Both the position numbers and the translations under genes were made by a program. A stretch of 64,000 bases of DNA, from assembly GCA_965208325.1 (NCBI GenBank), contig OZ242326.1, positions 1,088,001 through 1,152,000 of the forward strand. The letters run 5' to 3'. Origin of the DNA: Candidatus Poribacteria bacterium. Its GTDB lineage: Bacteria > Poribacteria > WGA-4E > PCPOR2b. Below the pieces are notes generated by a model. That model did no database searches. It had not been told where the DNA came from and worked only from the letters and a program-made list of their open reading frames with translations. Of the stretch, positions 23,411 through 33,429 are shown one piece after another; positions within the stretch are counted from its first letter, which is position 1; each line of letters opens with the position of its first letter.

Positions 23411-24924
23411 GTAGGTTCGGTAGGAGCCATCTCCGCATCGCGACCCTCATTTAAAACCGAGTTTTTTCTTCAAAACTCGGTTTTTTAAACGCAACTTTTG
23501 TAGGTTGGGTTAAACGGTGATGACGAAAGAGAGTATATTCGCTGTATGCGATTCAAAATTAGAAAGCGTTTGAAATTTTGATATGATGTAGCGAAACCCA
23601 ACGATCAACTGAGCGAATAGATCGAGCGACCGTATAAGGAGTGCGATAGAACTCTTCGGCGATAGTCTTCAGCATAAAAATCGTGCGACCACCTGATCAT
23701 TTCCTGCTCCCTTAAAAATAGCCCATCATTTAGTCCCACAAATCGCAATTCAGACAATCTTTTTGCGTTCGGTAGGAGCAATCTCCGAATCGCGACCCTC
23801 ATTCAAAACCGAGTTTTTTCTTCAAAACTCGGTTTTTCAAACGCAACTTTTGTAGGTTGGGTAAAGTGGATAATCCCAAGACTGTTCCGACAGCATTAAC
23901 CGTTCAGGACGTTAATCATTGCTCATTGCACATCACGTGTAGCGAAACCCAACGATCAACTGAGCGAATAGCGAAGGCGATAGTCTTCAGCATAAAAAAT
24001 CTTGCGACCGCCTGATGATTTCCTGCTCCCTTAAAAATAGCCCATCATTTAGTCCCACAAGTCACAGTTCAGACAATCTTTTTGCGTTCGGTAGGAGCGA
24101 TCTCCGAATCGCGACCCTTATTTAAAACCGAGTTTTTTCTTCAAATCTCGGTTTTTTAAACGCAGCTTTTGTAGGTTGGGTAGAGCGGATAATCCCATAA
24201 CCGTTCCGATAGCGTTAACCGGTCAGGACGTTAATCATTGCTCATTGCAAATTACGCATAGCGAAACCCAACGTTTTTGAAACCTTTCGACACCGAAAGG
24301 CGGACGCCACCACCAGAACGATGGGAATAACCCTTATTTAAAACCGAGTTTTTTCTTCAAAACTCGGTTTTTTAATCGCAGCTCTTGTAGGTTGGGTAGA
24401 GCGGATAATCCCATAACCGTTCCGATAGCGTTAACCGGTCAGGACGTTAATCATTGCTCATTGCAAATTACGCATAGCGAAACCCAACGATTTTGAAACC
24501 TTTCGACACCTAAAGGCGGACGCCACCACCAGAACGATGGGAATAACCCTTATTTAAAACCGAGTTTTTTCTTCAAAACTCGGTTTTTTAATCGCAGCTC
24601 TTGTAGGTTGGGTAGAGCGGATTATCCCAAAACCGTTCAGATAGCATAAACCGTCCACGACGTTTATCATTGCTCATTGCAAATTACGCATAGCGAAACC
24701 CAACGATTTTGAAACCTTTCGACACCTAAAGGCGGACGCCACCACCAGAACGATGGGAATAACCCTTGTTTAAAACCGAGTTTTTTTCTTCAAAACTCGG
24801 TTTTTTAATCGCAGCTCTTGTAGGTTGGGTAGAGCGGTAATCCCAAAACCGTTCAGATAGCATAAACCGTCCACGACGTTTATCATTGCTCATTGCACAT
24901 TACGCATAGCGAAACCCAACCTAC
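23411..24924. repeat. Six-unit composite palindromic tandem array
   Basis: Palindrome AAAACCGAGTTTT-TTCTTC-AAAACTCGGTTTT at 23453, 23805, 24124, 24340, 24556, 24772 (periods 352, 319, 216, 216, 216), each followed by GTAGGTTGGGT...GCGAAACCCAAC. Confidence 0.97.
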
Positions 24925-24975: not shown

Positions 24976-25023
24976 TCCGAACAATTCATTTCGATCCATC
25001 TTTATATCTTGTGAGGTTTTTCT

Positions 25024-26583
25024 GTGAACACCAACCAATCCGAAATCGAACGGCGGCTGTGGAGCGCCGCCGATGAACTCCGCGCCAATTCACGGCTGCG
25101 GCCGTCTGAATATTCAACGCCGGTTCTCGGTCTAATCTTCCTTCGCTACGCCGACCACAGGTTCACGCAGACAGAATCCGAAATAAACCGCGAACCGACC
25201 GCGGGGCGGCGCAGACGCGCAGACAAAACCGAATTTCAGGCGCGCGGCGCATTCTACCTCCCAGAGACCGCACGATTCAATCATCTCCTAAACCTACCGG
25301 AGAGCGAAAACATCGGGCAAGCGATCAACAACGCCATGAGGGCAATCGAAGAGGAAAACAGACAGGTTGACGGCGTCCTGCCCAAGACCTACAACCGGCT
25401 CGAAAAGGCCACGCTGCTTGAACTGCTCCGCATCATGGAACGTATTCCGATGGACATTGAGGGCGACGCCTTCGGCAAAGTCTACGAATATTTCCTCGGC
25501 AACTTCGCCATGACCGAAGGCGCGCGCGGCGGCGAGTTTTTCACCCCAACCTCGCTCGTTAAGCTAATCGTCGAAATCATCGAACCGTTCCAAGGACGCA
25601 TCCTCGACCCCGCCTGCGGCTCCGGTGGCATGTTCGTCCAGAGCGCCGATTTCGTGCAGCGGCACCGCGAAAACGGTAACGGGCAAATCAGCATCCACGG
25701 AATCGAACGCGTCGCTGAGACTATCCGCCTGTGCAAGATGAACCTCGCCGTCCACGGACTCGAAGGCGACATCAAGCAGGCAAATAGCTACTACGATGAC
25801 GCGCACCGCGCCTTTGAAAAATTCGACTTCGTCATGGCGAATCCCCCCTTCAACGTTGACCGCGTGGACAGGGAACGTATCAAAGACGACCCGCGTTTCC
25901 CGTTCGGCATGCCCCGTGTGGACAACGCCAACTATCTCTGGATTCAACTCTTTTTCAGCACGCTTAACACCTTCGGACGCGCCGGCTTTGTAATGGCGAA
26001 CTCCGCAGCCGACGCCCGCGCCTCAGAGCTGGAAATCCGCCGGCAATTTATCGAATCCCGCGCCGTTGATGTCATGGTCAGCATTGGGTCTAACTTCTTC
26101 TACACCGTTACGCTGCCCTGCACCCTCTGGTTCTTCGACAAGTCGAAAGCGCACGGCGATAGGCGGGATACTGTGTTGTTCATCGATGCCCGCCACATTT
26201 ATCATCAAGTCAGCCGCGCACATCGCGAGTTTACACCCAAACAACTGGAGTTTCTAGCCAACATTGTCCGGCTGCATCGCGGCAAACCGCCCGAAAACCG
26301 GCACGACAGTGCGGAACTGATGGGGTCGAAGTTCACCGATGGCGCGTATGCCGACGTGCCCGGTCTCTGTAAAGTCGCGTCAATTTCGGAAATCGAAGCG
26401 CAAGGCTGGAGCCTCAACCCCGGACGATACGTCGGCGTCGCCGATCGCGAGGCGGATGCCTTCGACTTCGCCGAGCGGTTGGGCGAACTCAACGAGGAAC
26501 TCGAAATCCTGAACGCCGAAGCGCATCAGTTAGAAGAACGTATCGGTGAGAATGTAACCATGATTTTGGAGGAGGCGAGGTAA
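25024..26583 (+). CDS. hsdM: Type I restriction-modification N6-adenine methyltransferase subunit
   Basis: [35 protein letters not shown] and WSLNPGRYV motifs. Confidence 0.96.
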
Positions 26584-26585
26584 GT

Positions 26586-27018
26586 TGTTAGAATCAGGAT
26601 ACTCAGGATAGGAGGATTTTCAGGATGATCGAGGATAAACTGACATATCAAATCATCGGTTGCGCAATGGAAGTACATAAAGCCCTTGGGAACGGTTTTC
26701 AGGAAGTAATTTATCAGCGGTGTCTCGCAATTGAGTTGGACAGGGCTAGGCTCAGTTTTGGTCGAGAGGTGGAGCAACCTATCTTTTATCGGGGTGTTGA
26801 AATAGGAACTAGAAGAGCCGATTTTATTGTCGCCAATCGTGTCGTCGTTGAATTAAAAGCTTTGACTGCCCTTGAGGACGTTCATATTGCACAAGCTAAA
26901 AACTATGTGGTTGCTTACAACTTTGAAATCGGGCTTCTGATTAATTTCGGTGCGATTCGTTTAGAATACAAACGCATATTCAACGATAAAAAGAACCCCG
27001 TGAATCCAAATTCAGACG
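26586..27018 (+). mobile_element. Putative element: GxxExxY gene enclosed by inverted GGAT-periodic arms
   Basis: Left arm TGTTAGAATCAGGATACTCAGGATAGGAGGATTTTCAGGAT overlaps the start codon; degenerate right arm AACCCCGTGAATCCAAATTCAGACG lies inside the 3' end of the ORF. Confidence 0.55.
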
Positions 27019-27032
27019 AGGAGCCGAAATGA
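26625..27032 (+). CDS. GxxExxY protein (PD-(D/E)XK nuclease-like)
   Basis: LGNGFQEVIYQ (GxxExxY), RADFIV...VVELK nuclease-like motif, GLLINFG; 135 aa. Confidence 0.93.
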   Translation: MIEDKLTYQIIGCAMEVHKALGNGFQEVIYQRCLAIELDRARLSFGREVEQPIFYRGVEIGTRRADFIVANRVVVELKALTALEDVHIAQAKNYVVAYNFEIGLLINFGAIRLEYKRIFNDKKNPVNPNSDEEPK

Positions 27033-27053
27033 TTTCGGACGACGGGGTGTGAA

Positions 27054-27127
27054 TGGTCAGAATCAGGCTACCAGGATACTCAGAATGACGACAGTGACAG
27101 CCAATCCTGTAAATCCTGATTCAGACA
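27054..27127. repeat. Gene-less mini-element with the same inverted arms
   Basis: GGTCAGAATCAGGCTACCAGGATACTCAGAAT ... AATCCTGTAAATCCTGATTCAGACA. Confidence 0.8.
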
Positions 27128-27527
27128 GAATTCTGCAACATTTTAAAAGGAGGCGATGTAAAACCAGAAATATCCAAAATTTTGTGAGGTTTTGTGACAT
27201 ACACGGAAGTTTCGGCAAAACTGATGATCCGCTAAAACCGCATCACAAGCGGATTTTAGCGAATTTTACAAGTCCCATTTTCCACGTCACAGACCGCCTC
27301 ACACATTGTGACAAAGTGTGACGTGAGACTAAAATTATGATAACGCCAAAAATCCGCCGAACCCTTATGATAAGCGGACTAACACGGATTTCACTGATGA
27401 AAAATGATATGTCACACTCAACCTCACATAATGTGACATCGTGTGCGTTTTTGTGACATACGATATTGATGGATAGGCGGGTCACAACCGAGAAAAAATT
27501 ACTACTTCTGTAGAGGAGACTTATAGC

Positions 27528-27814
27528 ATGGATAATGACCGAAAAAAAACACCACCAGCCGCAGCGCTTGTTACGATTCGCAAGTCGCGGCTGTCACCGC
27601 ACGTGCACAAAAGGCGATTGCTGTACTCGACGGGTTGCTCGACAGCGAGGACGAAAAAATCCGCCTTCAAGCCGTTAGTTTACTCCTCAAGTTAACACCT
27701 TCGCTCAAAGAAGCCAATCCTAAATCAACTACGCAGGATTTGAGGGTGTATAGGGAGCTTAGCGATCTTTACAAGCCAATCGGATTGGAGCCCAAATTCC
27801 GCGAAGAAAAATAA
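27528..27814 (+). pseudogene. Small helical protein split at an A8 tract
   Basis: GAGGAG RBS and ATG at 27528; one extra A at 27542-27549 gives a 95-aa ORF containing KAIAVLDGLLDSEDEKIRLQAVSLLLK and ending at TAA 27814. Confidence 0.5.
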
Positions 27815-27915
27815 AACACAGAGCACCACCCTGAACCCTGCATTTCCCTTAACAACGCGGTCAAGGGTTATGTTCATGTGTTTATAAGGAGGTTCTTGGT
27901 AGGTTGGGGTGCAAA

Positions 27916-28023
27916 TTGTCTGAATCAGGATACTCAGGATTATATGATTTTCAGGATAATAAACGGCAGCGGATAGAAAAACTCCTGTAAATCCTTTAAT
28001 CCGGTAAATCCTGATTCAGACAA
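27916..28023. repeat. 108-bp gene-less element with perfect 16-bp terminal inverted repeats
   Basis: TTGTCTGAATCAGGAT ... ATCCTGATTCAGACAA; internal GGAT/ATCC units spaced 9-8-9 on both arms. Confidence 0.9.
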
Positions 28024-28052
28024 AATGTAACGATGATTTCGGAGTAAGCGGT

Positions 28053-29222
28053 GTGATTCCTACGACGAAAATTAAGCATCTTCCGATAGCGATTATTGAC
28101 GGAGACCGATCTAAAAGGTATCCGAAAAGAAGCGAATTTCGTCTCGGTACAAAAATTCAATCAGATAAAAAAAGGGCGGCTCCGACGCCTTGATATCGTG
28201 ATGACCACACGAGGGAGCATTGGAAAAGTGGCACTCTTTGATTGCCAACCTCCTACGGGGTTAATCAATGCACAGATGCTTATTCTGAGAGCCGATGGCG
28301 AGATAATTAATCCCAAATTTCTATTTTATCAGATTTGTAGCGAGGATTTTCAAACGAAGCTGAGAAACTTTGCGTCTGGTTCCGCACAACCACAGATTCC
28401 AATTATAGATTTAATGGAGGTTGAAGTTGCCGTTCCAGATTTACCTGTCCAGCATCAAATCGCCTCCATCCTCAGCGCCTACGACGACCTCATAGATAAC
28501 AACACCCGCCGCATCAAAATCCTTGAAGACATGGCGGCAACTATCTACCGGCAATGGTTCGTCGAATTCCGCTTCCCCGGCCACGAACACGTCCCAATGG
28601 TCGAGTCAGAGTTAGGATTGATACCGCAGGGGTGGGCGGTGAGCACACTCGGAGATTTGGCGGAATCCGTCAGACGTAATATCAAGCCAAGCGATGTAAA
28701 TCAACCAACACCATATTTTGGTTTAGAACACCTACCCCGAAAATCAATCGCCCTTACAAATTGGGCCTCTCCGATTCAATTAACAGTACAAAGTTGGGAT
28801 TCAAAAAGGGCGAAATTCTGTTCAGTAAAATTCGCCCCTATTTTCACAAAGTTGGTGTTGCGCCAATAGATGGCATTTGTTCATCGGATACAATCGTGAT
28901 ACGTCCAATAAAAAACGAATTCTTTGCAATTACCTTGTCTTGCGTTTCAAGTGAGCACTTTATCGAATACGCGACTACAACCTCCCAAGGAACAAAAATG
29001 CCACGAGCCGATTGGAACGTGCTTTCAGATTATCCACTTGTAATGCCACATGATCAAATTGTTCAGCGTTTCCGTGGTTTTGTTGACGATGCGATCGACA
29101 AAATTCAGAATATGATTTTTCGGAACAGAAACCTCCGTCAAACCCGAGACCTTCACCTTCCCAAACTCATCTCTGGTGAGATTGACATATCCGAATTTAA
29201 CATCGACATGGACGGAACATAA
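28053..29222 (+). pseudogene. hsdS: Type I R-M specificity subunit, broken by two frameshifts
   Basis: GTG 28053 gives MIPTTKIKHLPIAIIDGDRSKRYPKRSEF; frame shifts near 28135 into ...GSAQPQI...QHQIASILSAYDDLIDNN...IPQGW; shifts again at 28763 into KGEILFSKIRPYFHK...GTKMPR...LPKLISGEI. Confidence 0.88.
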
Positions 29223-29547
29223 CTGCGTACAAATGCCAACGCAAACCCTGTATCCGTTTTAACGCATCATTGCAAAAACTATGAAAATTTCATAGTACCA
29301 TTTTTTCAAAAGTCGGCTAAACCCGCACCCTACCTACGTTTACTGACATTCGTCGCCCGCTCTTTTTCACAGTTTACTATGAAAACTATGAAATTCTGGC
29401 ACCAAAATCGCCCATCGCTTCACAGATACGAAAATTTTACAACAACCTGATATTAGCGAGAATTACGATTAACTTTCGCAATAAACCAATGTGTGATAAA
29501 ATATCTTCGTCTTATTGCCGTACACTAGCGAGGAAAGGTGCCCACCC

Positions 29548-30729
29548 ATGCCGCAAGCGAAACCATTTTTGGAAAAAGTTCATATCAAAAACTACCGGAG
29601 TTTGCGCGATGTCACTCTCTCGCTTAAACCAATAACAGTGCTAGTCGGACCGAACGCAAGTGGCAAATCAAATATCATAAGAGCCTTGAACGGTCTGAGC
29701 GCGATGATGATACGTGAAAGCCTGCCCCAAGTTCAGGCATTTCGAGACGCGCTTTGGGCAGGCGGTGCGAACGACATAGCTTTCCAATTACAAGCAAGAG
29801 TCGGGAAGTTCCTGGCCATATATGATTTGGTGCTTAAAGGGGATACTGATGAGACTTCAGTGGACGAGGCATTATTGGTAAACGATGTTCAAGTCATATC
29901 AATTCAGAGCGGCCAGGGCGTAGTTCAGGATGAGGATGGCACGACGCGGACAAAATACAAATCCAAAAAACTCGCTTTGAAATCGGCTGGCGATTACGGA
30001 AACAAGCCAGTTACAAAAGCCCTAACCCAGTACATTAAGGCTTGGGTAATTTCTGATTTACGACCGGAACGCATACGAGATGATTTCGAGGAATTTACGT
30101 TAGTTACAGCGGGACTAACTCCTGGTCAATCCAGTACGTTGCGTGACTCTTCACGGCATCGTAATAGACATGTAATATCTGCGCAACTCTGGTACTGGTA
30201 CGAGAACGATCGCGCGCGTTTCGACAGCGTAAGTTCATCCCTCGAAAATTCTACAAATTTCAGAATAGACCAATGCCCAATTGACGGAAACGATCAACTC
30301 TGTCTGTTGAAAGGATATGAGACGCCGCTAACTCTGGTGGGCGCATCTGACGGCACATTGAGTCTCGTCGCATACTACGTCATTCTCAACCAGCCCGAAT
30401 TACCACCACTTCTTGCCCTTGAAGAACCGGAGCGCAATCTCCACCCCGGAGTTTTGACCGACATTGCAAATGTCCTTGAACAGCTTTCCAAACGTACCCA
30501 AGTCATTATCACGACCCATAGCTCCCAACTCCTTGATGCCTTTAATAGTGAAAATTTGTCGGAGTCGTTGGGGGTTTTGCTCCTACGCAACCGCCCCGGT
30601 AGTGGGACGGAAGTTATCAACATTGAAGACATCCGCGAAAACAGAGCCTCCCTGGACGGTTGGATTACGGATTTCGGAATTGGCAGCGCGATTTTTGAGA
30701 GTGAACTTCTGCAAGACCTAATGGAGTAA
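29548..30729 (+). CDS. AAA/ABC-type ATPase (AAA_21-like, defence-associated)
   Basis: IKNYRSL, GPNASGKS Walker A, SDGT signature, LEEPERNLHP Walker B, TTHS. Confidence 0.9.
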   Translation: MPQAKPFLEKVHIKNYRSLRDVTLSLKPITVLVGPNASGKSNIIRALNGLSAMMIRESLPQVQAFRDALWAGGANDIAFQLQARVGKFLAIYDLVLKGDTDETSVDEALLVNDVQVISIQSGQGVVQDEDGTTRTKYKSKKLALKSAGDYGNKPVTKALTQYIKAWVISDLRPERIRDDFEEFTLVTAGLTPGQSSTLRDSSRHRNRHVISAQLWYWYENDRARFDSVSSSLENSTNFRIDQCPIDGNDQLCLLKGYETPLTLVGASDGTLSLVAYYVILNQPELPPLLALEEPERNLHPGVLTDIANVLEQLSKRTQVIITTHSSQLLDAFNSENLSESLGVLLLRNRPGSGTEVINIEDIRENRASLDGWITDFGIGSAIFESELLQDLME

Positions 30730-33084: not shown

Positions 33085-33129
33085 AATCCGTGTAATCCAT
33101 TAATCCGCGGCAATCCGCGATTCAGACAA
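33085..33129. repeat. Solo right arm of the GGAT/ATCC-periodic repeat family
   Basis: AATCCGTGTAATCCATTAATCCGCGGCAATCCGCGATTCAGACAA; ATCC spacing 9-8-10. A second copy lies at 33372-33413. Confidence 0.75.
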
Positions 33130-33429
33130 CAAGAAGTTCGCCATACGGAAGTACATTTTCATTTTCTTTCATTGCTTCTCCGAAAGCATCATAGACTTCG
33201 ACCGAGAAACTGACGATTAATCGCCGGCACGCATCGCCTATCGGCTGACACGGTCGCCACTATAACAGATTACACCTAACGAGTCCCGTTGACGATGAAA
33301 AAAAGACAATGCCGGAATGAAAACGCAACATCCATTTTTGCGAAACGAAGCCAAATATGATGGATGTCTTCAATCTGCGCTATCCTAAAATCCGCGGCAA
33401 TCCGCGATTCAGAGATTTGGAGAGTGAAA

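Follow-up and report, generated by a model that had tools for sequence, protein, structure and literature searches.

We examined a 64,000-nucleotide (nt) window of a Poribacteria genome (G000), in which a small gene cassette lies in the junction between hsdM and hsdS of a type I restriction-modification operon. The cassette consists of a gene for a GxxExxY protein, a predicted nuclease, enclosed by short inverted arms that are built from repeated words; two further pairs of such arms, without a gene, lie downstream. The cassette family is real, widespread, and turning over. Arms are associated with the gene across its homologues and carry words specific to each protein clade; orthologous sites are occupied in some genomes and empty in others, with a precise outer terminus and no target duplication; and the catalytic residues of the protein are intact. 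Coordinates given below are positions within the window, unless a genome or locus is named; no conclusion draws on the unpublished genome G160.

Organization of the hsdM-hsdS junction

The host gene upstream of the cassette, hsdM (25024–26583, + strand), encodes the type I restriction-modification methylase (Pfam N6_Mtase, E = 1.3e-82; HsdM_N, E = 1.8e-25). Its native 3' end, a segment of ~35 nt at 26551–26585 (+), was recognized by its repeat families and by its retention in the arm-less alleles of G001 and G003. The left arm follows at 26586–26627 (+), where sequence reading and repeat analysis revealed a terminal motif and then four GGAT words. These words start at 26597, 26606, 26614, and 26623, a spacing of 9-8-9 that was read directly in the sequence, and the open reading frame (ORF) of the GxxExxY protein begins inside this arm just as the original prediction had described. 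The start codon at 26625 falls within the fourth GGAT word, and the AGGAGGA of the third-word region is also the ribosome-binding site.

The GxxExxY gene itself (26625–27032, +) encodes 135 amino acids. A degenerate right arm occupies some of its last codons (26994–27017, +; repeat analysis gave 66% agreement in direct and 75% in inverted comparison) and encodes NPVNPNSD. The gene had been predicted to end in this arm; the arm is present, but four more codons (EEPK) come between it and the stop. The two gene-less pairs that had been predicted at 27054–27127 and 27916–28023 are also present, although the first of them starts at 27056. This pair (27056–27127, without strand) is 72 nt long and eroded, with 12-nt termini at 92%, a predicted DNA fold of −10.2 kcal/mol (z = −2.7), and an ortholog in the hairpin plus tail of G002. 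The other pair (27916–28023, without strand) is 108 nt long and has four words per arm, perfect 16-nt termini, arms of 41 nt with 83% complementarity between them, a loop of 26 nt, and a predicted DNA fold with z = −7.0.

Beside every unit in the window, although not mentioned in the original prediction, lies a divergent version of the final ~35 nt of hsdM. Because the arm-less alleles retain the hsdM end, we concluded that this segment is native to hsdM. The copies, all on the + strand, lie at 27029–27055 (copy 1; 74% in the repeat analysis), 27128–27161 (copy 2; repeat analysis and allele comparison), 27891–27915 (copy 3, degenerate; 63%), and 28024–28058 (copy 4; 85%), the last being the leader and start region of hsdS.

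The GxxExxY protein

GxxExxY proteins are small, PD-(D/E)XK-like, and form a large family of unknown function. The product of the cassette gene matched PF13366 PDDEXK_3 (E = 1.4e-38, 132.3 bits against a cut-off of 22) and TIGR04256 GxxExxY (E = 1.4e-39, 135.1 bits against a cut-off of 35), and it gave a weak match to a Cas4b profile (E = 1.7e-5). Residues G24, E27, Y30, D66, E76, K78, Q90, and Y94 were invariant in 64 sequences. The AlphaFold2 (AF2) model had a pLDDT of 91.9 and, by Foldseek comparison, a restriction-endonuclease-like fold; its best match was Cas4 SSO0001 (E = 4e-5), followed by lambda-type exonucleases and Hjc. A sequence search of the PDB gave no match at E values up to 10. 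Judging from its profile matches and predicted fold, the protein looks like a minimal RecB/Cas4-type PD-(D/E)XK nuclease, and its residues suggest that it is catalytically intact. In the literature that we searched, we found no description of a pairing between GxxExxY genes and arms; biochemical data on the family were likewise not found in the literature searched.

Architecture of the arms

An arm consists of three to four short words at 8–9-nt spacing plus the conserved terminus TTGTCTGAA; its words are GGAT(T) in the window copy and GAAT in AT-rich hosts. The terminus TTGTCTGAATCAGGAT is conserved across the phyla of the homologues. Within one arm, all words are identical in type. A two-word pattern matched the window seven times against a mean of 1.17 in shuffled sequence, and none of 100 shuffles reached seven; chance is therefore excluded. 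Genome-wide, the arm pattern was matched 93 times, and the reversed genome gave a single match.

The words of one arm repeat in direct orientation, and only inverted pairs fold. In fold prediction, the pair at 27916–28023 can form an interrupted hairpin, at −23 kcal/mol on one strand and −24.5 kcal/mol on the other (z of roughly −7 to −8). We compared the two arms of each of 61 inverted pairs (those no longer than 135 nt, from 72 distinct pairs), a set that includes related copies, so that the counts are not independent. Agreement between the arms was high at the termini (536 of 610 positions, 88%) and in the words (755 of 868, 87%) but reached only 46% in the spacers (532 of 1150). Mismatches were mostly A/A and T/T, with 102 of the G-T type and 129 of the A-C type, and there was no strand-specific wobble signature in these 61 pairs. 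Because the words are conserved but the spacers are not complementary, protein-binding arrays are favoured over a selected helix, and the arms would fit better as inverted arrays of putative protein sites. A small hairpin of ~27 nt was also seen between two left-arm words at the same place in two genera (L094 of G006, 1345–1375; L100 of G019, reverse strand, about 1170–1200).

Association of arms with the gene in homologues

The association of arms and gene was assessed in a homologue set comprising the 80 best of 591 confirmed relatives, one genome per species, at 57–77% identity. The set spans Dehalococcoidia, Bacteroidota, Poribacteria, Akkermansia, cyanobacteria, Leptospirales, and Methylococcaceae. 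Counting the terminal motif at no more than two mismatches within −200 to +150 of the gene, we found it beside the gene in 77 of the 80 loci. Motif density near the gene was 5.5/kb (184 in 33,582 nt), about 11 times that of the far flanks (93 in 185,808 nt, 0.50/kb), and shuffled loci gave ~0.06/kb (14 in 246,674 nt). The enrichment of arms near homologues that the original prediction called for was thus found. With L and R for the nearest left and right arm on either side of the gene and a dash for none, the layouts were L..R in 28 loci, R..R in 11, R..- in 10, L..L in 7, -..R in 6, R..L in 6, L..- in 5, and -..L in 4, with no arm in 3.

The cassette has no evident promoter of its own and lies in sense orientation in host operons. 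The gene was co-oriented with its upstream neighbour in 61 of 69 callable loci and with its downstream neighbour in 54 of 67. Among the 141 neighbouring ORFs that were scanned, restriction-modification genes, mostly of type I, accounted for neighbours in 23 of the 80 loci; OLD-type or DUF4276 neighbours occurred in two more, and the remainder were in strings of housekeeping genes. Three Bacteroidota genomes (L043, L052, and L061) have the cassette at one and the same site, just before the gene for an Eco57I-type methylase, and its outer flanks there are nearly identical. Relatives in viral contigs numbered only two with the patterns used. In one 43-kb viral contig (L275, 230–770), a relative truncated at its N-terminus is found close to the contig end; it has a right arm of the typical form and may be located at a prophage border.

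Word type follows protein clade

G000 has one other PF13366 gene (G000:1880944–1881285), which shares 57% identity with the first. Four tandem arms stand before it; these have the TGTCTGAA terminus in common with the first copy and carry GTGATT words. Its ATG lies in the last arm word, and downstream come a matching inverted arm and then a truncated copy of the gene.

We sorted the flanks of 22 Poribacteria genes into 8 arm-word classes and mapped these onto a maximum-likelihood tree of the proteins. The 8 classes required 7 changes, which is the minimum, against a mean of 14.2 for shuffled labels, and none of 200 shuffles was as low. Because kin share labels, the match as read from these sequences shows co-descent and not co-evolution as such. 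That all words in both arms of one copy are of the same type does indicate homogenising selection, for example by a binding protein, and because arm words are uniform, a change of word must reach all copies. The clades of the protein do not follow host families, and two of them can be present in one genome, where each is paired with arms of its own.

Presence, absence, and boundaries of the cassette

Orthologous sites differ between related genomes. At the site after the hsdM stop, the same-genus G001 and G003 are arm-less; the same-genus G002, with an HsdM that is 96% identical, has a gene-less pair, and its hsdM reads into the arm and stops there; and G000 and the same-family G006, G022, and G023 have the gene plus pairs. 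In the arm-less alleles (L092 of G003, 1315–1470; L093 of G001, 1365–1520), we also observed a near-consensus TTGACA-17-TATAAT promoter after hsdM. It precedes a unit of ~100 nt that ends in a hairpin and T-run and resembles a small RNA gene.

A second comparison used the leuC-leuD junction in 8 loci of one Bacteroidota genus. Here G155, G171, and G161 are filled by members of one clade, the gene of G161 being frameshifted, and G166 is filled by a different clade with different arms. The junction is empty in G165, where the stop and the next start are 6 nt apart; G173 retains a left-arm relic, and G170 and G176 have unrelated repeats. The junctions vary by a few bases, and the arm substitutes for the last leuC codons in G171, G161, and G173. 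A third comparison concerned a solo left arm at G000:2039663, which is common to G000 and G002 and was set against the empty site in G001 and G003. At this site, 80 nt replace 23 nt, and the outer edge lies exactly at the terminus, where it forms the stop codon of the neighbouring gene; there is no right arm and no duplication. For three more arms, comparison with orthologous empty sites gave no clean result. The original prediction had looked to empty sites in related genomes, and such alleles exist after the hsdM stop in two same-genus genomes, at leuC-leuD in another phylum, and at the orthologous site of the solo arm.

No target-site duplication was found at 31 clean left-gene-right loci, in which the outer-flank score was 5.5 against a mismatched-pair null of 5.7 (sd 1.2). 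Similarity ends exactly at 28021–28023 in hundreds of metagenome contigs and at 27983 in many, and the summed contig depth over 27976–28049 was 12,139, 1,533, 2,564, and 2.85 in four sponge-metagenome runs. From this sharp loss of similarity and high contig depth we concluded that the arm is a distinct module, present in very many copies, whose outer end is sharply defined.

The ~35-nt hsdM-end segment deserves separate mention. In G021, two arrays comprise at least 12 pairs that are nearly identical and are spaced by a 37-nt version of the segment, an arrangement that indicates tandem amplification. The 35-mer also accompanies a broken cassette and pairs at two G000 loci that are not restriction loci. 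We considered whether the repeat is a long target-site duplication and rejected this, because 31 other loci lack any duplication and the same 35-mer occurs at the two non-restriction loci. The repeat is read instead, from its distribution in these sequences, as flanking DNA that was probably carried along by recombination and amplification. A deletion junction shared by gene copies and gene-less pairs is not claimed; the alignment is ambiguous, and the right arm of the local gene copies is shorter than that of the pairs.

Gene-less arms and other candidate enzymes

G000 contains about 75–90 arms of three word types and two genes, and its CGGATT type is without a resident gene. An arm-first scan of metagenome contigs yielded 91 distinct arms at 80 loci. 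Among the 79 that were informative, 31 formed inverted pairs within 200 nt, another 31 were solo or otherwise arranged, and 10 were wide pairs with miscellaneous inserts. No gene other than GxxExxY recurred beside the arms in this sample.

We also considered the RAYT genes (PF01797, Y1-transposase) as the source of an arm enzyme. The two RAYT genes of G000 (G000:C1:1955500–1956900 and 3321500–3322800) are each bracketed by their own, different family of repetitive extragenic palindromic (REP) sequences. Because the RAYT genes have separate REPs, the arms are not their REPs, and the candidate was rejected. One RAYT REP, a hairpin of the form AAACCGAG...CTCGGTTT, is a module of composite repeats that also hold GTGATT-word arms. 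Composite units also make up two tandem arrays with periods of 287 and 338 nt (G000:C1:2007798–2008950 and 4247629–4248650), and each unit opens with a GTGATT-word arm and continues with other repeat modules; no convincing ORF was found in either array. At G000:C1:4397400–4398400 we observed another small gene flanked by periodic words, the sole PF05635 gene (23S rRNA intervening-sequence, four-helix-bundle), which has tandem heptamer repeats on both sides in direct orientation.

Other features of the window

The segment between the two gene-less pairs (27162–27890, without strand) is not built from arms. It contains a 59-amino-acid ORF that belongs to no family (no Pfam, PADLOC, or PHROGs match) and a dispersed, TGTGACA-rich repeat of ~280 nt (about 27179–27460), which separates the pairs. 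Copies of this repeat that are 68–73% identical occur at G000:438407 and G000:4455279 and also in G001–G003, and one copy sits ~200 nt from another arm. A scan of 26000–28600 against Rfam (E up to 1) gave no match, nor did a PHROGs search.

Downstream of the cassette, hsdS (28053–29222, +) consists of three overlapping ORFs in different frames (28053–28193, 28096–28869, and 28761–29222). Only the middle ORF matches Methylase_S (E = 1.3e-15 for 28096–28866), and from this arrangement the specificity gene may be inactivated by frameshift. Just beyond it, 29515–30729 encodes a 404-amino-acid AAA_21/AAA_15 ATPase that is matched by the PADLOC HEC-01A model (E = 6e-40) and by AriA/OLD-type models. 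Because this HEC-01A-like ATPase adjoins the type I operon, the restriction operon lies in a defence island. Arm scans also located solo arms elsewhere in the window: two of the CGGATT-word type at 33085–33129 (− strand) and 33372–33415, and two of the GTGATT-word type, within a composite repeat, at 24031–24075 (− strand) and 23712–23756.

A proposed selfish cassette and its alternatives

We propose that a widespread selfish cassette is present in the hsdM-hsdS junction of the window in three copies, one with the gene and two without it. The arms would be the cognate binding array of the nuclease, and DNA would be broken at the terminus TTGTCTGAA. New copies would then arise through nuclease-started breaks and host repair, in a process resembling homing or gene conversion, not transposase-style cut-and-paste. 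Gene-less arms, whether solo, in inverted pairs, or in tandem arrays, would be copies that have decayed or lack autonomy; they would persist, and ordinary tandem amplification would also add to their number. We consider it probable that the cassette is of this nuclease-linked, selfish kind, with breakage at the terminus by the nuclease, subsequent recombination by the host, and decay into gene-less arms, which are also amplified passively. Binding, cleavage, and nuclease-driven spread are steps that we infer. More tentatively, and with the balance somewhat against so broad a statement, the cassettes may constitute a new class of prokaryotic mobile element, in which a nuclease of ~125 amino acids reads word arrays, one clade per word, breaks a fixed terminus, spreads by host repair across at least seven phyla, and seeds gene-less repeats.

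Several results weigh against a nuclease-driven cassette. The most direct concern abundance in 151 Poribacteria genomes. PF13366 occurred in 80 of the 151, with 1–6 matches each that were often fragments, and the arm pattern occurred in 138, at 0–287 per genome against 0–1 for the control; arm abundance does not follow the gene, contrary to the link that the original prediction had drawn. The cross-check of arms and gene covers 20 genomes without PF13366 (51 more also lack it), and 18 of these 20 have arms, from 4 to 213 (including 213, 154, 142, 107, and 103). Closed, single-contig genomes without the gene have 85, 68, and 27 arms. Arrays of at least 12 units expand by tandem duplication, for which the nuclease is not needed. 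The layout around the gene is not uniform either: the canonical left-gene-right form is commonest but far from the sole form, and in one clade the arms on both sides of the gene are direct and not inverted. Inner boundaries and junctions differ between copies by a few nucleotides, and an arm can take the place of native sequence. Units at non-restriction loci are accompanied by the hsdM-end-like 35-mer, and what moves is therefore not in every case delimited by the terminus. Lastly, neither a clean excision nor a circle junction appeared in contigs of the four metagenome runs, where joints of low depth and with short sides were other hairpin copies. The proposal that the nuclease recognises and spreads the arms therefore stands in part: the covariation of words with protein clade speaks for it, the multiplication of arms by tandem amplification without the gene speaks against it, and we continue to infer it.

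The main rival explanation takes the arms to be independent repeats, similar to REPs or bacterial interspersed mosaic elements (BIMEs), that are spread by replication or recombination in the host or by some other enzyme, with the gene as a secondary parasite or passenger that homes into them, the arm being the target of its endonuclease, and does not drive their spread. We regard this as unlikely, though it would explain why arms far outnumber genes and occur without them, and why the GxxExxY gene lies within 800 nt of only 7 of the 79 informative arms. It also accommodates the growth of arrays by tandem duplication and the arms that are modules of composite tandem repeats beside other repeat families. 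A passenger gene is harder to reconcile with the exact correspondence of word type and protein clade in the 22 genes examined, or with arms that provide the ribosome-binding site, start codon, and last codons of the gene. In addition, no other gene family recurs at arms, and the RAYT genes of G000 use different repeats.

A selfish cassette also has to be weighed against a resident module, in which the arms are operator or RNA-processing signals and the nuclease is an accessory of restriction or host systems that autoregulates through the word arrays. The frequent co-orientation with upstream (61/69) and downstream (54/67) neighbours, the restriction-modification genes beside 23 of the 80 loci, the translation signals within the arm, and the foldability of 27916–28023 as an interrupted hairpin (z = −7) are what such a module would predict. 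However, 57 of the 80 loci have no restriction neighbour and lie in housekeeping operons such as leuC-leuD, presence and absence differ between congeners, the protein is up to 77% identical across phyla, and gene-less copies number dozens to hundreds per genome. The spacers, moreover, are not complementary, and there is neither wobble bias nor an Rfam match. We consider a resident module improbable. Least probable is membership in a known class, whether an insertion sequence (IS) of the DDE type with miniature inverted-repeat transposable elements (MITEs), an integron cassette with attC, or an IS200/IS605-type element: terminal inverted repeats, gene-less derivatives, promoter-less co-oriented cassettes, and palindromic units between ORFs in some loci recall these classes, but there is no target-site duplication, the sole ORF is a PD-(D/E)XK nuclease, the Y1 transposases of G000 have other repeats, and no integrase stands beside the cassette in the window and only 1 of 80 loci has one.

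Linking GxxExxY to a defined DNA partner, namely word arrays with a conserved terminus, provides the first concrete, testable functional hypothesis for this family. If the nuclease mobilises the arms, a widespread type of mobile element is missing from the catalogues of ISs and MITEs, and it would account for some of the repeats between genes in Poribacteria, Bacteroidota, cyanobacteria, and further groups. That cassettes lie within operons, and in those of type I restriction in particular, matters for annotating gene ends, in that arms give stop codons and replace C-termini; expression of defence systems may be influenced as well. For studies of how protein-DNA specificity evolves, the clade-specific word code offers a compact natural system. 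If the cassettes do constitute a new class of mobile element with a word-reading nuclease, nature would provide in the word-protein pairs a collection of small DNA binders or nucleases that are sequence-specific and re-targetable.

Comparison with known systems

In IS/MITE and RAYT/REPIN systems, an autonomous gene is accompanied by non-autonomous copies, and the original prediction drew an analogy to both. MITEs, of which Correia and Nezha are examples, and their parent insertion sequences share with the cassette terminal inverted repeats (perfect over 16 nt at 27916–28023) and a preponderance of short gene-less copies over few gene-bearing ones. They differ in that the cassette has neither a target-site duplication nor a transposase, has variable inner boundaries, and commonly occurs as solo arms and direct arrays; the analogy fails for lack of the duplication. 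Integron cassettes with attC resemble the present ones in their small, promoter-less, co-oriented ORFs and imperfect palindromes of 70–110 nt, and in some loci the gene lies between two palindromes. In contrast, the canonical cassette gene here lies inside the palindrome, and copies are dispersed through operons instead of forming one array. No integron integrase or attI was found among the ORFs of 25000–30000, and a single phage-type integrase was present among the 141 neighbour ORFs of the 80 loci. The arm ends TTGTCTGAA and TTCAGACAA, compared by reading with attC core motifs, showed no evident fit. Both the DDE IS/MITE reading and the integron reading were rejected on their defining features, there being no target-site duplication, no transposase, and no integrase.

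Free-standing homing endonuclease genes are similar in being selfish units whose only product is a small nuclease; they too occupy intergenic or gene-end sites without duplication, and the spread of the cassette, like theirs, would use host repair. One homing endonuclease, I-Ssp6803I, is itself of the PD-(D/E)XK type. Such genes, however, are not known to have inverted word arrays of their own or large gene-less families, and for the cassette no cleavable empty target is defined. With the Cas4, RecB, and lambda-exonuclease domains, the GxxExxY protein shares the fold and catalytic set (helix E, D, ExK, QxxxY), but it is only ~125 amino acids long, has no iron-sulfur cluster module or partner proteins, and stands alone outside CRISPR loci.

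The layout is closest to that of REP/REPIN-RAYT systems. Both have a small gene flanked by a short repeat, of which dozens to hundreds of further copies occur without the gene, whether singly, as inverted doublets, or in tandem clusters; in both, each clade of the gene pairs with its own repeat variant, and the target is not duplicated. The analogy holds for this layout and not for the rest. The enzyme of the cassette is a PF13366 RecB/Cas4-like PD-(D/E)XK nuclease instead of an HUH Y1 transposase (PF01797), and its arms are three to four words plus a conserved terminus instead of a short GC-rich palindrome, so that a single arm forms no hairpin. The GxxExxY gene is, moreover, 57–77% identical across phyla, at 1–6 copies per genome that are often broken. 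That is, the cassette is laid out much like a REP/REPIN-RAYT system, and it differs from one in enzyme fold, arm architecture, and horizontal spread.

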